Assembly (NCBI GenBank): GCA_034717835.1
Contig: JAYELZ010000256.1
Coordinates: forward strand, 1,639-65,638
Origin: Chloroflexota bacterium
Lineage (GTDB): Bacteria > Chloroflexota > Anaerolineae > B4-G1 > SLSP01
Direction of reading: 5' to 3'
DNA: 64,000 nucleotides
The position numbers and the translations under genes were made by a program. Numbering within the stretch: the stretch's first letter is position 1; each line of letters starts with the position of its first letter. The notes under the pieces were generated by a model. The model did not search any database and was not told where the DNA came from. It worked only from the letters and a program-made list of their open reading frames with translations. Positions 4,201-62,501 of the stretch are shown here, piece after piece.

Positions 4201-5117
4201 TTGATAAGGCCGAGAATGAGATTATGGAGCGCGCTTGGGGCTGGTTCAAGGCGCAGGAATATGATTTGGAGCAGTTGACCAGTGATGTTGAAGCGCGTCT
4301 CATCTACGTGGCAGCTTGGCTTTCCCCGTTGGGCTACGATCTAGATTTATTGCGCGATGATGAGACTTATGCCCGCCGTTCGGTATTGCGGGAATGGCTG
4401 CGCGAGCAAGGGTATAATCCTGACGAAATACTAGTTTTTGAAAAGGATCCCCGCAGTAGCCGTGAGAAAGAAGAATCGGATCTTATAGCTACTAATGTGT
4501 GTTTGCACTTTTGGGCTGAAGAGCAAGGAAGAGATCTTGGCGAGCTATCTGGGGAGGAGTTACAGTTGGCCGCCACCCGCATTAGCATTCAGGAAAATCT
4601 ACCTCTTCCCACGTTGGGGAAGATGCAACTCTACGATGGCAGAACGGGTCGTCCTTTTGATCAACCTATTACAGTAGGTGTGGTCTATATGCTCAAATTG
4701 CACCACTTGATTGAGGATAAGGTTCATACTCGCTCTACTGGCCCCTATTCGCTGGTGACGCAACAGCCGCTGGGCGGTAAAGCCCAGTTCGGTGGGCAGC
4801 GCTTTGGCGAGATGGAAGTCTGGGCATTGGAGGCTTATGGCGCTGCTTATGTTCTTCAGGAGATGTTGACCATCAAATCCGATGATGTGCAGGGGCGTGT
4901 TAGCGCTTACGAATCTATCGTTAAGGGATTGCCTATTGAAGAACCCGGTATTCCGGCTTCTTTCAATGTATTGGTGAAAGAACTGCAAAGTTTGGCGCTT
5001 GCTGTGGAAGCGGTCACCGATACAGGCGAGGTATTGCGGTTCGCTCGAGAACGGAAAGATGCGAAGTTGCCGAAATTGGGTATGGGATTGTTGGGGTTAG
5101 TTTCCGAGCGACGGTGA
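1212..5117 (+). CDS. rpoB: DNA-directed RNA polymerase subunit beta
   Basis: 1301 aa with beta-subunit signature blocks: NGTERVIVSQLIRSPGVYF, AGRHGNKGVVSEV..NPLGVPGRMNIGQ, GGQRFGEMEVWALEAYGAAYVLQEMLTIKSDD. Carries a lineage-specific insertion near aa 990-1130. Confidence 0.97.
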   Translation: MQGTDLRVKSYAQISSVLDLPGLVEVQLKSYQWLLAEGLQQLFDEISPIESYNGQLSLYLPGKRAQEAEFDLSYRFVESKYSRQECVDRDLTFAVPLYVDVALVNRETSEIVQQEIFMGNLPLMAENATFIINGTERVIVSQLIRSPGVYFDVDDDGGHRLATAKMIPDRGAWMQFETRKSGYLTLRFNRKRIIPVTLFLRALAAIDDELHSEVLSQGTDEELTDIFEAADNDPDHPWIATTIRQEPELELRGGKYTIAQAALIEFYRRMRPGDPATLENAEEYLTSQIFNPQRYNLQKVGRYKLNQRMGLNIPMSVRTITKEDLVAFVRRMIHINNGVAGPDDMDHLGNRRVKTVGELVQAKLRVGMVRMERVIKERMSIRDDSPTPVSLINIRPVVGVIREFFGSSQLSQFMEQTNPLASLTHKRTLSALGPGGLKRERAGFDVRDVHNSHYGRICPIETPEGPNIGLIGRLATYARVNDLGFIETPYRRVIRVVPNVKEKLLGETLRQAVRDPDTGEVIAEAGVVVDEALAERIVALPLSDNVKVVPHVTTDIDYLSADREEVYAIAQANTELNENGCFINRRVSARKGGQFLSTSPERIDYIDVAPLQIVGVSAALIPFLSHDDANRALMGSNMQRQGVPLVSTDAPLVGTGMEGPAAANSGLVVIARQSGVVLNVTGEKIKVRSDDGEIETYQLLKYTRSNQSTCFDQRPIVNKGQRVEAGDILADSSSTEQGNLALGQNVLVAFMSWRGGNFEDAILLNEELARQDKFTSIHMEEYELVARDTKLGPEEVTSEIPNVSESALSDLDEEGIVRVGAEVGPLDILVGKITPKGEKELTPEEKLLRAIFGEKLRDVKDTSMRMPHGARGKVVDVKVFSREEYRDLPAGVEKVVRVYVAQRRVITAGDKMAGRHGNKGVVSEVVPRADMPYLESGREIDIILNPLGVPGRMNIGQVLETHLGWAAERLGFHTVTPVFDGANETEIAADMARAWLIDKAENEIMERAWGWFKAQEYDLEQLTSDVEARLIYVAAWLSPLGYDLDLLRDDETYARRSVLREWLREQGYNPDEILVFEKDPRSSREKEESDLIATNVCLHFWAEEQGRDLGELSGEELQLAATRISIQENLPLPTLGKMQLYDGRTGRPFDQPITVGVVYMLKLHHLIEDKVHTRSTGPYSLVTQQPLGGKAQFGGQRFGEMEVWALEAYGAAYVLQEMLTIKSDDVQGRVSAYESIVKGLPIEEPGIPASFNVLVKELQSLALAVEAVTDTGEVLRFARERKDAKLPKLGMGLLGLVSERR

Positions 5118-16822: not shown

Positions 16823-16947
16823 TTGTGTAGTTAGAAAGTCCGGTAGCTAAGCAATTGGTTACCTAGCCAGTAAAATAAGTCCTTTGGCCGCTAAGGCGTA
16901 GCCAGTAATTTCAATAGGTAAACGGCAGGTGTGCGGAAGAAGGCTTT

Positions 16948-16960
16948 GCTATAATTAAGT
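16948..16960 (+). promoter_or_regulatory. Extended -10 element (TGcTATAAT) inside an unusual 212-nt gap between rpsH and rplF
   Basis: ctttgcTATAATtaag lies ~75 nt upstream of rplF. Adjacent genes of this operon type normally abut. Confidence 0.3.
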
Positions 16961-48441: not shown

Positions 48442-48505
48442 GCGTTTCACGTTGCAGCAAGTAAAACAGGTTTTGGACACAAATTGAAACGCTGGATAAT
48501 TTGGT

Positions 48506-48570
48506 CCTTGACTATTGACTCCCCGACTAACGACTTTCAACTTTTGACCTTTGACTTAACTAAGGACTAA
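48506..48570. repeat. GACTA-periodic repeat tract immediately upstream of rmlC (family A/B/C, copy A)
   Basis: ttGACTAttGACTccccGACTAacGACTttcaacttttGACctttGACTtaactaagGACTAat. Confidence 0.6.
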
Positions 48571-48575
48571 TAACC

Positions 48576-49124
48576 ATGACCCAATTCACCCGCTTAGCTA
48601 TTCCCGAAGTTATCTTGATTGCCCCGCGCGTCTTCGCCGATGACCGGGGCTTTTTTCTGGAAACTTACCAACATTCTGCCTATGCGGAGTACGGTATCCC
48701 GCACCTGGTGCAGAGCAATCACTCGCACTCCAGCCGCAATGTGCTGCGTGGTTTGCACTATCAGCAGGCTCCGTTGGCACAGGGTAAATTGGTTACGGCG
48801 ATTTGCGGAGAGATTTTCGATGTGGGTGTCGATATTCGACACGGTTCCCCCACCTACGGACAATGGGTCGGCGTACGGCTTTCGGCGGAAAATCACCGAT
48901 TGCTCTACATCCCGCCGGGCTTTGCCCACGGCTTCTGCGTCTTGAGCGCGGAGGCGGACGTGGTCTATCAAGTGACCGTTGAATACTCGCCCGCCCACGA
49001 CCGGGGCATTTGCTGGGACGATCCGGAGATTGGCGTGGAGTGGCCGATTACCTCTCCATTGCTCTCTCCCAAAGATGCGGCGCAGCCATTACTCGCCGAG
49101 GCGGACAATAATTTCAGGCTTTAA
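48576..49124 (+). CDS. rmlC: dTDP-4-dehydrorhamnose 3,5-epimerase
   Basis: 182 aa with the RmlC cupin (FADDRGFFLETYQ, RGLHYQ). Confidence 0.85.
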   Translation: MTQFTRLAIPEVILIAPRVFADDRGFFLETYQHSAYAEYGIPHLVQSNHSHSSRNVLRGLHYQQAPLAQGKLVTAICGEIFDVGVDIRHGSPTYGQWVGVRLSAENHRLLYIPPGFAHGFCVLSAEADVVYQVTVEYSPAHDRGICWDDPEIGVEWPITSPLLSPKDAAQPLLAEADNNFRL

Positions 49125-49130
49125 GTCAAA

Positions 49131-49196
49131 GGTCTAACGACTAACGACTACCTGACTAACGACTAACGACTAACGACTAACGACTACCTGACTAGC
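49131..49196. repeat. Heptamer tandem array (CTAACGA units interrupted by CTACCTGA) immediately upstream of radA (copy B)
   Basis: gtCTAACGACTAACGACTACCTGACTAACGACTAACGACTAACGACTAACGACTACCTGACTAgc. Confidence 0.7.
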
Positions 49197-49209
49197 TCAA
49201 GGATTGATC

Positions 49210-53457: not shown

Positions 53458-53558
53458 CCGGCTAATTCTCAAGCCGCATCTGGTATAATATGGTTTGTCA
53501 GCCGCATGGCTTTTGAAATTAGCTAGAGTTGGTTACGTACTTACACCTCAGGACCTAG

Positions 53559-61478: not shown

Positions 61479-62213
61479 TCACCAATCCTTGCCGCGCTCC
61501 CCAAAGATCGCCCGCCCGACGCGAACCAACGTCGCGCCTTCCTCCACCGCTACCTCGAAGTCATCCGTCATCCCCATCGAAAGTTCGCCCCAGGCCACGG
61601 CGGGGAACCGTTCCCGCAGCAATGCCCGCAGCCGGCGCAGGGATACAAAGATTGGACGCGCCAGCTCGGGATCCTGTCCCCAGGGGGCCATGGTCATCAA
61701 CCCCTTGACGCGCAGCGCGGGACGCGCCAGTATCTGCTCCACTTGCTGGCTAAATTTCTCGCGCACCTGCTCGGAACGCTCCCAGTCGGAGAGTTGGAAG
61801 CCGTATTTGCTCTCCTCTCCGGAGACGTTGCACTCTAGCAGCACCGGGATTTCACGTCCCGCCTGCGCTGCCTTGTTACTTAGCCGCCGCGCGATCTTCT
61901 GGCGGTCTAGGGAATGCACCCAATCGTAATGCGCTACTACGTATTTGTCCTTCCGGCTCTGGATGTGTCCAATCATGTGCCAAGTGGGTTGTTGCTCTCC
62001 CAACGCCTCGTTTACTCGCGCTATTTTAGCCAACGCTTGTTGCGGACGGTTTTCCCCAAAATCACGTTGCCCACATTCCCATGCGGCTAGCACATCCTCC
62101 GCCGGGAATGTCTTGCTCACGGCGATCAGGCGCACCTCATCCGGTCGCCGCCCGGCACGCAACGCCGCCTCGGCCATGCGCTCGCGCACCCTCTCCAAAT
62201 TCTGACAAATCAT
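61479..62213 (-). CDS. yggS: YggS-family PLP-binding protein (PLP homeostasis protein)
   Basis: [14 protein letters not shown] (the PLP lysine) and an alanine-racemase N-terminal-like TIM barrel. The start is at MICQNLERV (62213) or 18 nt upstream. Confidence 0.75.
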
Positions 62214-62355
62214 GTCTCTCCTCTTCACCATACCTCCTTTGAAAATAGTCGGGTAGTCTTTGGTCTTGTAGTCAAATAGTGATTTTCGTGCCTGGTTGGT
62301 GTGCTTCCCTCATGGAGACTCTTAAGAAGGAATGTGAATTAAGAATAGCACGAGT

Positions 62356-62468
62356 GAGCGAGAAAGCGAGAAAGCGACTAACAACTACCCGACTATTGGA
62401 CTACCCGACTATTGGACTACCCGACTACGGACTACTGGACTAACGACTACTCGACTAACGACTAACCG
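62356..62468. repeat. GCGAGAAA x3, then a GACTA-periodic array (gactacccgactattg x3-like, gactaacgacta), upstream of the M20 gene (copy C). An inverse copy AGTCGGGTAGTC lies at 62247-62258
   Basis: gagcgagaaagcgagaaagCGACTAacaaCTAcccGACTAttgGACTAcccGACTAttgGACTAcccGACTAcgGACTActgGACTAacGACTActcGACTAacGACTAaccg. Confidence 0.7.
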
Positions 62469-62490
62469 CACGTTGTTTCTCAAACTGCCT

Positions 62491-62501
62491 ATGCTACAAT
62501 A
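62491..62501 (+). promoter_or_regulatory. Extended -10 (TGcTACAAT) ~40 nt upstream of the M20 amidohydrolase start
   Basis: ctaTGcTACAATagag, immediately downstream of the repeat array. Confidence 0.35.

Follow-up and report, generated by a model that had tools for sequence, protein, structure and literature searches.

Reports of tandem repeats with units of 7–8 nucleotides (nt) at gene edges date back to 1990 for cyanobacteria and were later extended to Xanthomonas, Geobacter, and Beggiatoaceae; to our knowledge, neither a function nor a binding factor of such repeats has been demonstrated. Here, we analyzed arrays of such units, built on a GACTA core, in a 64,000-nt stretch of a Chloroflexota bacterium of the class Anaerolineae (GenBank assembly GCA_034717835.1, contig JAYELZ010000256.1, positions 1,639–65,638 of the forward strand), referred to below as the window. 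A first-pass annotation had noted three GACTA tracts in it, upstream of rmlC, radA, and an M20 amidohydrolase gene, and had read them as iterated binding sites for a regulator or as a small dispersed repeat family.

Cyanobacterial STRR heptamers were reportedly described by Mazel et al. in 1990. The units CCCCAGT, TTGGTCA, and CAACAGT are STRR heptamers of filamentous cyanobacteria. STRR are also mentioned in the study of the GGGAATC and GGGGA(T/C)T heptamers of Xanthomonas and Nostoc, which form intergenic, mostly transcribed arrays (Rehm et al. 2015, PMC4692102). One strand of GGGAATC lies right after stop codons and its complement lies on the coding strand right before start codons, 70–75 inverted pairs were found on opposite strands, and array length varies between related genomes or species while the position is kept (PMC4692102). 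TAACTGA direct repeats have a scattered phylogeny, covering marine Beggiatoaceae, some Cyanobacteria, and Bacteroidetes (MacGregor 2015, PMC4679880). They occur in 2–6 or more copies, often broken by related 7-mers. Of 170 sets, 147 run forward and stop short of a start codon by a few nt; the repeats have no predicted RNA structure, the downstream genes share no theme, and close strains differ by 7-nt indels (PMC4679880). In Nostoc, eight GAC(C/T)AAT units overlap the start codon of recO, such repeats lie no more than 30 nt from the start codons of at least 13 genes, and deletion of those upstream of recO altered the promoter effects of LexA and NtcA in Escherichia coli, which gives some reporter evidence for a cis effect (bioRxiv 10.1101/2022.06.06.494920). 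Paired tandem sites of Geobacter metallireducens (GTTGCTYN x4, TCTCCGTS, and MTYCTGA x5) were interpreted, as a proposal only, as binding sites of a global regulator (IHF/HU) (Aklujkar et al. 2009, PMC2700814). As far as the work of Mrazek et al. 2007 is summarized in PMC4679880 and PMC4692102, long simple sequence repeats have 5–11-nt units, most commonly heptamers, and are attributed to polymerase slippage, and repeats with a unit length not divisible by three are found in non-coding DNA only.

GACTA arrays in the window

The window arrays are hepta/octanucleotide simple-sequence repeats, kin in kind to STRR, TAACTGA, and GGGAATC, with a unit of GACTA plus 2–3 variable bases. Exact GACTA clusters on the plus strand were found only at 48510–48569 (array 1; three exact cores and approximately seven degenerate units such as GACTC, GACTT, AACTT, and GACCT), 49139–49194 (array 2; eight cores per 56 nt), and 62376–62464 (array 3; 11 cores per 89 nt). 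Tandem Repeats Finder reported CTAACGA x7.4 for array 2 (score 90) and a period of 7/8/15 at 62375–62468 for array 3 (score 93). Against the background rate of GACTA in the window, the Poisson probability per window was approximately 1e-17 for array 2 and 1e-22 for array 3. The three tracts and their 7–8-nt recurrence were thereby confirmed. Arrays occupied three of the 46 window spacers of at least 25 nt, and the other spacers of this set hold no GACTA cluster. The ribosomal block is free of such clusters, as the first-pass annotation had also stated. All arrays lie in non-coding spacers and none in the coding DNA of the window, and the unit is not a multiple of three. The tracts and their neighbors are as follows.

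48502–48572, plus strand: array 1, a degenerate run of approximately 10 units with a period of approximately 7 nt
49122–49196, plus strand: array 2, which occupies the whole rmlC–radA spacer
62375–62468, plus strand: array 3, 12 units with a period of 7/8 nt, GACTA with the linkers AC, CCC, TTG, CG, CTG, and CTC, and a repeated GACTACCCGACTATTG
62246–62273, minus strand: inverse partner array of four units, on the minus strand GACTA caa GACCA aa GACTA ccc GACTA
62357–62377, plus strand: octamer repeat AGCGAGAA x2.6, a different unit that abuts the 5′ end of array 3

The order in array 1 is TGGTC, then GACTA tt GACTC ccc GACTA ac GACTT tc AACTT tt GACC ttt GACTT a ACTA ag GACTA, and its last unit supplies the Shine-Dalgarno sequence AAGGA (48562–48566) of rmlC, whose ATG is at 48576. 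At the 5′ end of array 2, two degenerate inverse units (AAGTC and AGGTC) overlap the rmlC stop codon TAA. The forward part consists of eight units, namely six GACTAAC and two GACTACCT, and is followed by the Shine-Dalgarno sequence AAGGA (49199–49203) and the ATG (49210) of radA. The units of the window arrays are GACTAAC, GACTACCY, and GACTATTG; none is GGGAATC or TAACTGA. A threefold gactacccgactattg, claimed previously, was found as two exact copies plus near copies. The inverse copy noted upstream of the third array is present; it is an array of four units rather than a single one and lies 102 nt 5′ of array 3. Its plus strand reads TAGTC ggg TAGTC tt TGGTC ttg TAGTC, and it sits 6 nt before the Shine-Dalgarno sequence AAGGAGG (62234–62240) of a divergent minus-strand gene encoding a YggS-like protein (61479–62231).

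Orientation and distance to start codons were regular. GACTA was on the sense strand of the following gene in all four window arrays, the inverse array included, in agreement with the earlier notion that the arrays point at start codons. A Shine-Dalgarno sequence follows 0–8 nt after array 1, array 2, and the inverse array. From the last GACTA core to the next ATG, the distance is 6 nt in array 1, 15 nt in array 2, and 75 nt in array 3; hence, the proximity to plus-strand starts stood, but not the range of 15–70 nt given for it.

Turnover between strains was followed in three short Logan contigs (L001, L122, and L123), which are 98.8–99.6% identical to the window. Array 2 of L001 has one GACTAAC unit (7 nt) fewer than that of the window. 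In L122 and L123, array 2 is rebuilt, with approximately five inverse-type units (AAGTC, AGTTG, GGTTG, CAGTC, and GGGTC) and four forward units. Array 1 of L001 and L122 is identical to that of the window. Length variability among near-identical strains that has no effect on expression had been named beforehand as grounds for refutation (plain microsatellite instability), and this was half borne out: the unit number and layout of array 2 differ in the manner of a microsatellite. For array 3, strain variants were sought by an exact-protein look-up, in which the M20 and YggS-like proteins had no record.

The syntenic relative L124 (approximately 75% DNA identity, 86% RadA protein identity) retains remnants of one or two units, TTGACTAAC before the Shine-Dalgarno sequence of rmlC and GACTAACGACTAA before that of radA. 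Among relatives at 71–86% RadA identity, no GACTA array was found upstream of radA beyond these remnants, and some more distant relatives have other heptamers away from radA. The unit differences among near-identical contigs, together with the remnants in L124, indicate that the arrays evolve by gain and loss of units. Whole-unit gain, loss, and reshuffling are the product expected of slipped-strand mispairing or unequal exchange. Judged by these sequence comparisons, the arrays are young, unstable in unit number, and anchored to gene edges.

Gene context and folding of the arrays

Pfam upheld the names given to the genes after the arrays (dTDP_sugar_isom for rmlC, RadA domains, and Peptidase_M20) and assigned the gene divergent from the M20 gene to the YggS-like pyridoxal-phosphate (PLP) proteins. 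The closest named RadA relatives are all from 'Anaerolineae bacterium'. Scans for sigma-70 promoters and terminators gave nothing convincing at arrays 1 and 2; each of the two fills a spacer flanked by genes of the same direction and is probably transcribed together with these.

At array 3, 71 nt separate the end of the tract from the M20 ATG (62540), and 5 nt separate it from the −35 hexamer of a predicted promoter.

62473–62500, plus strand: predicted M20 promoter, with −35 TTGTTT (62473–62478), a 16-nt spacer, and extended −10 TGcTACAAT (62492–62500)

A stricter scan around array 3 called no promoter. TGNTAYAAT has four matches in the window, three of which lie in spacers 5′ of plus-strand genes (16947–16955, 53481–53489, and 62492–62500), so extended −10 promoters seem to be used by this organism. 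In an Ardenticatenaceae contig (L029), TGTTACAAT directly follows an array much like array 3. Array 3 thus probably lies just upstream of the predicted promoter, outside the 5′ untranslated region, and the leader position proposed for it earlier probably fails, with the candidate extended −10 between array and gene. The idea that the arrays are stacked −35/−10 boxes was dropped by sequence reasoning alone, as an 8-nt phase gives a 15-nt spacer.

Two further observations concern the surroundings of the arrays. A small gene for an MNT-type nucleotidyltransferase (PF01909/PF18765; 48079–48441), possibly half of a toxin-antitoxin pair, lies between an aminotransferase gene and rmlC. Since L124 has a 260-nt spacer in its place, the gene looks like a lineage-specific insertion beside array 1. 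In array 3, the GGACTAC in units at 62399–62450 is the sequence with which the universal 16S primer 806R begins and is therefore complementary to 16S rRNA positions 800–806. The match of GGACUAC is probably a coincidence because this rRNA segment is inside helix 24.

Rfam 15 gave no match in the window and none in five related loci. The folding z-scores were −1.3 for array 1, +0.3 for array 2, and −1.95 for array 3, with an overall range of −2 to +0.9; arrays 1 and 2 thus folded no better than shuffled sequence (z −1.3, +0.3, −0.2), and the repeat part of array 2 was unpaired in the minimum-energy fold. The sense RNA had −9 to −12 kcal/mol per 100 nt, and the antisense RNA was more strongly folded (−16 and −20 kcal/mol). 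The G content of the arrays is 13–18%, and each of the three frames of arrays 1 and 2 contains stop codons. When the whole spacer was folded, the inverse array paired with the last four units of array 3 (z −2.8). The units are 7–8 nt long and head to tail, unlike the 23–50-nt repeats with unique spacers of similar length that define CRISPR. As for the stable stem-loops formed by the imperfect palindromes of REP/BIME elements, z was approximately 0 for arrays 1 and 2, −2.8 for array 3 with its partner, and down to approximately −10 for the related arrays described below, which lack register-specific pairing. The earlier view that the arrays are unlike CRISPR and probably unlike REP elements was supported, and they match no known structured RNA in Rfam 15.

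Related arrays in other genomes and metagenomes

GTDB, with one genome per species, and metagenomes, with GACTA-N3 x4 as the query, were scanned for related arrays, each yielding at least 120 loci; genes were called as the longest open reading frames (ORFs), which is a crude procedure. Approximately half of the GTDB matches listed came from filamentous cyanobacteria with STRR-like GACTAAT or GACCAAT arrays, and the others from Acidobacteriota, Gemmatimonadota, Bacteroidota, Chloroflexota, and further groups. A universal bias toward start codons was rejected, as the downstream side of the array faced a stop codon in 63 and a start codon in 50 of the 120 GTDB matches listed. Among the cyanobacterial matches listed, the 3′ end of the array abutted the stop codon of the neighbor 30 times and a start codon 13 times. 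The Chloroflexota loci L029, L043, L055, L073, and L107 have the layout of the window, in which the array is followed by a Shine-Dalgarno sequence and an ATG.

The metagenome matches listed fell into two classes, uniform microsatellites and 87 arrays with linkers that differ from unit to unit. In the variable-linker class, the 5-nt core is exact and the 3-nt linkers approach randomness: pyrimidines make up 68% of position 1, and the composition of the other positions is flat. A same-strand ORF started within 40 nt of the 3′ end in 23 arrays of this class, versus two with an opposite-strand start at the 5′ end. The view of one repeat family with a conserved GACTA core is supported, and its members point at start codons among the metagenome arrays listed as they do in the window.

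Many relatives are bipartite. A TAGTC-type half lay 5′ of the GACTA half in 27 distinct loci, versus one locus with the reversed order, which has an unrelated palindromic unit (p = 2e-7). The typical element has the following order.

Stop codon (often the TAG of the first unit), (TAGTC N3)x3–7, spacer, (GACTA N3)x4–7, Shine-Dalgarno sequence, ATG

Such elements are mostly between co-directional genes, as in the mraY–murD spacer of L203, a Chloroflexi/Anaerolineae-like contig, and in two spacers of a liv operon in L225, which is Thermodesulfobacteriota-like. A distribution restricted to Chloroflexota was rejected on account of L225. No regulon theme was recognized among the genes after the arrays in the window and the related loci, whose functions are unrelated, and tblastn of the window proteins against the scan loci yielded too few common genes to place these loci taxonomically.

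The bipartite relatives fold into long hairpins, most strongly in L237 (−66 kcal/mol, z −9.9), followed by L232 (z −7.8), L245 (−5.3), L203 (−5.1), and L217 (−4.8). Permutation of the linkers within each half did not weaken the hairpins (median z +0.45, none below −2), which indicates that the pairing is not register-specific and is a by-product of the everted cores. A hairpin with compensating linkers was ruled out by this control. The variant units (GACCA, GACTG, AACTA, and GACTT) are mostly transitions and are similar before starts and after stops. G-U asymmetry, sought as a sign of RNA pairing, was not seen, with GACCA making up 29% of the variant units before starts and 18% after stops. 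Both controls, the linker permutation and the variant spectrum, speak against an RNA helix being maintained.

In liv-operon orthologues (89–100% protein identity), the gene-proximal units are kept, and the middle of the spacer is swapped for other elements. In Thermodesulfobacteriota-like contigs, small 23S_rRNA_IVP (PF05635) genes are located between the TAGTC and GACTA halves of the livH–livM spacer.

L255, 878–1057: 23S_rRNA_IVP gene
L259, 3727–3951: 23S_rRNA_IVP gene
L260, 3583–3951: 23S_rRNA_IVP gene
L261, 1331–1555: 23S_rRNA_IVP gene

The close relatives L256 and L251 have different inserts at this site. The liv spacers of sister strains (L251, 3820–4010 and 6465–6665; L256, 6462–6665) also hold other palindromic repeats. 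One of them, AAGTGACTAAAGT / ACTTTAGTCACTT, includes GACTA, and a second is an everted array of AAATCCCAAAT / ATTTGGGAT.

Two side observations were made on array ends and on other units. In cyanobacteria, the end of a GACTAAT array often gives the stop codon of the neighbor, the TAG of TAGTC on the other strand (L004, L032, L045, L069, L081, and L095), and in L013, L025, and L093 it gives the ATG, as in GACTAATG. Chloroflexota contigs also have arrays of other hepta- or octamers, namely CCAGTAG, TTTCCCAG, CGTGAAA (with an inverted partner), and GGGGCAG x6, which indicates that the array habit is not specific to GACTA. The arrays of other units are as follows.

L073, approximately 4700–4760
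L107, approximately 640–750
L043, approximately 1340–1385
L129, 16866–16913
L127, 3615–3657

Origin of the arrays and comparison with described repeats

Tentatively, we favor the explanation that the arrays are driven by slippage, are shaped by selection at translation-initiation regions, and serve at most as passive spacers that lack structure and vary in length. Units would be added, removed, and reshuffled by slipped-strand mispairing or unequal exchange. With a period that is not a multiple of three and stop codons in the units, arrays would survive only between genes, where growth may continue until a stop codon or a ribosome-binding site is met. Beside a start codon, a single orientation would be kept, namely the one that yields a transcript rich in A and C, poor in G, and essentially free of structure. 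Such an array would then be a structure-free spacer or ribosome landing tract 5′ of the Shine-Dalgarno sequence, and array 3 a spacer just upstream of a promoter. Any cis effect on the downstream gene would be modest at most, and a dedicated regulator would be unnecessary. The everted order is explained by the orientation rule at start codons alone, because a convergent pair would put the wrong strand at the start. The variant units, mostly transitions and alike in both gene contexts, are as plain mutational decay predicts. Published parallels share the polarity and the length variation and support this explanation (PMC4692102; PMC4679880; Mrazek et al. 2007, to the extent summarized in PMC4679880).

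Several points weigh against it. An exact 5-nt core with near-random 3-nt linkers, found in a large class of related arrays, is not expected from the neutral decay of a microsatellite and implies a sequence-specific constraint or templating; this is the main reason why binding-site models are kept in play. The GACTA core recurs in Chloroflexota, Thermodesulfobacteriota, Cyanobacteria, and others. Array 3 is probably upstream of a promoter and thus falls outside the leader argument, and the orientation counts of the survey depend on the crude gene calls.

In one binding-site model, which we consider unlikely, the arrays are iterated double-stranded DNA operators for a global DNA-binding protein, one per 5-bp GACTA box, which would coat the spacer and modulate promoters or the access of regulators. 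Ribbon-helix-helix repressors use a spacing of 7–8 bp with direct and inverted boxes (omega heptads, the 8-bp metboxes of MetJ, and the ACTC-N4 boxes of ParG). The conserved core with near-random linkers, the two orientations inside one element, the similar spectrum of GACTA-strand variants in both gene contexts, and the end of array 3 at 5 nt from a predicted −35 hexamer would all suit such a protein. The authors of the G. metallireducens study read their paired arrays likewise (PMC2700814), and the LexA and NtcA effects of the recO repeat deletion in Nostoc point in the same direction (bioRxiv 10.1101/2022.06.06.494920). However, no candidate protein is known, arrays fill intra-operon spacers that have no room for a promoter (rmlC–radA, and mraY–murD in L203), and a DNA operator does not need a strict orientation to start codons; the downstream genes form no regulon, and one core across distant phyla would require a common factor. 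As a still broader proposal, which we likewise consider unlikely, GACTA (GACYA) boxes 7–8 nt apart may be sites for a conserved nucleic-acid-binding factor or for the ribosome or RNA polymerase. The everted TAGTC...GACTA would then be a cross-phylum 'gene-boundary' code that, at hundreds of spacers across Anaerolineae, Thermodesulfobacteriota, filamentous cyanobacteria, and other groups, sets the initiation of translation, processing, or the local structure of the chromosome. We regard it as quite unlikely that the forward arrays are transcribed and form 5′-leader sites through which an RNA-binding protein would control the initiation of translation, with one contact per GACUA. TRAP recognizes (G/U)AG sites separated by 2–3 nt, and HutP recognizes UAG-N4 sites; S1-, Csp-, or CsrA-type proteins would be alternative binders. 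The bias of 23 versus 2 in the metagenome matches listed and 4/4 in the window, the array ends 0–25 nt before a Shine-Dalgarno sequence or ATG, the unpaired repeat tract, and the conserved core with variable spacers, which is a TRAP-type signature, all fit this model, and MacGregor proposed the same for TAACTGA (PMC4679880). It is at odds with the inverse halves after stop codons, which read UAGUC and would not be recognizable by the same protein, with the predicted position of array 3 upstream of a promoter, and with the free variation of array length among strains, and here too no candidate protein is known. The regulator binding sites of the first-pass annotation were not substantiated; no factor, regulon theme, or RNA structure was found.

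Models that depend on structure or on copy number fared worse. It is very unlikely that each array is one half of a REP-like intercistronic hairpin, in which UAGUC units behind a stop codon would pair with GACUA units ahead of the next start codon, with the stem as an RNase III target, an mRNA stabilizer, or a translation coupler. The strong folding of UAGUC/GACUA bipartite relatives (z −9.9 in L237), the pairing of the inverse array with the last four units of array 3 (z −2.8), and the 23S_rRNA_IVP genes at the loop position (L255 and L259–L261) would be accommodated by this model, but not the folding of arrays 1 and 2, which is not above that of shuffled sequence, the hairpins that linker permutation leaves unweakened, the variant units without G-U-type asymmetry, or the divergent spacer, in which the two halves would be on different transcripts. 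Also very unlikely are contingency loci, in which gain and loss of units would switch or tune the downstream gene through leader length or the phase of an upstream site. Copy number does differ among near-identical strains, array 3 abuts a predicted −35 hexamer so that each unit would shift the upstream DNA by approximately 3/4 of a helical turn, rmlC is a surface-sugar gene, and Moraxella offers precedents in UspA1 and UspA2 (cited in PMC4679880). Yet radA, the M20 peptidase gene, and the YggS-like gene serve housekeeping, a 7-nt step affects neither frame nor spacing in the leaders that contain arrays 1 and 2, and related arrays precede every kind of gene.

The window itself contributes little more than an Anaerolineae host and direct strain-level turnover of units to a known repeat class. 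One core, GACTA, is found across phyla with an exact core and near-random linkers, an orientation to starts of 23 versus 2, and an everted order of 27 versus 1, and these rules make the old question of the role of such repeats more testable. If a factor reads the boxes, they would represent a widespread, unrecognized layer of gene-boundary control. If none does, they would be a clean case of slippage and translation-initiation selection shaping bacterial spacers, and also a practical source of strain markers and assembly breaks.

Compared with described repeats, the window arrays share all tested features of long simple sequence repeats, namely head-to-tail 5–11-nt units, whole-unit changes between strains, and a non-coding location. 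The class of Mrazek et al. 2007, as far as the two later papers describe it, differs in being statistical, with no conserved core or orientation rule. As in gene-edge-polar heptamer arrays of the GGGAATC and TAACTGA type, the strand is fixed relative to the start codon, the arrays end no more than tens of nt from it, and inverted pairs occur on opposite strands. GGGAATC arrays resemble the GACTA arrays in gene-edge polarity, inverted pairs, and length variation; they differ in being G-rich and forming G-quadruplexes, whereas the GACTA units lack G tracts and show weak folding, and their hosts are Gammaproteobacteria and Cyanobacteria rather than Anaerolineae. TAACTGA arrays are alike in their direct repeats toward starts, lack of structure, themeless genes, and strain indels. 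However, TAACTGA usually replaces a recognizable ribosome-binding site, whereas GACTA arrays precede or form the Shine-Dalgarno sequence; the unit is different, and neither an 8-nt period nor a variable-linker form is described for TAACTGA (PMC4679880). From STRR, the window arrays differ in the Anaerolineae host, in a unit that is 2/7 positions off the STRR2 complement, and in the mixed 7/8 period. The cyanobacterial GAC(C/T)AAT repeats share the GAC(T/C)A core and often have an inverse partner (L070 and L082), but their linker is AT, their period is strictly 7, and they lie at the stops of neighboring genes more than at starts. The Geobacter sites are alike in their 7–8-nt units with degenerate last positions, in opposite-strand pairs at variable distance, in their location in spacers including intra-operon ones (proB–proA), and in being species-specific; they have another consensus and a fixed, small number of units per site. 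Therefore, we concluded that the window arrays have the structure of the 7–8-nt intergenic repeat class and a unit sequence distinct from that of each named family.

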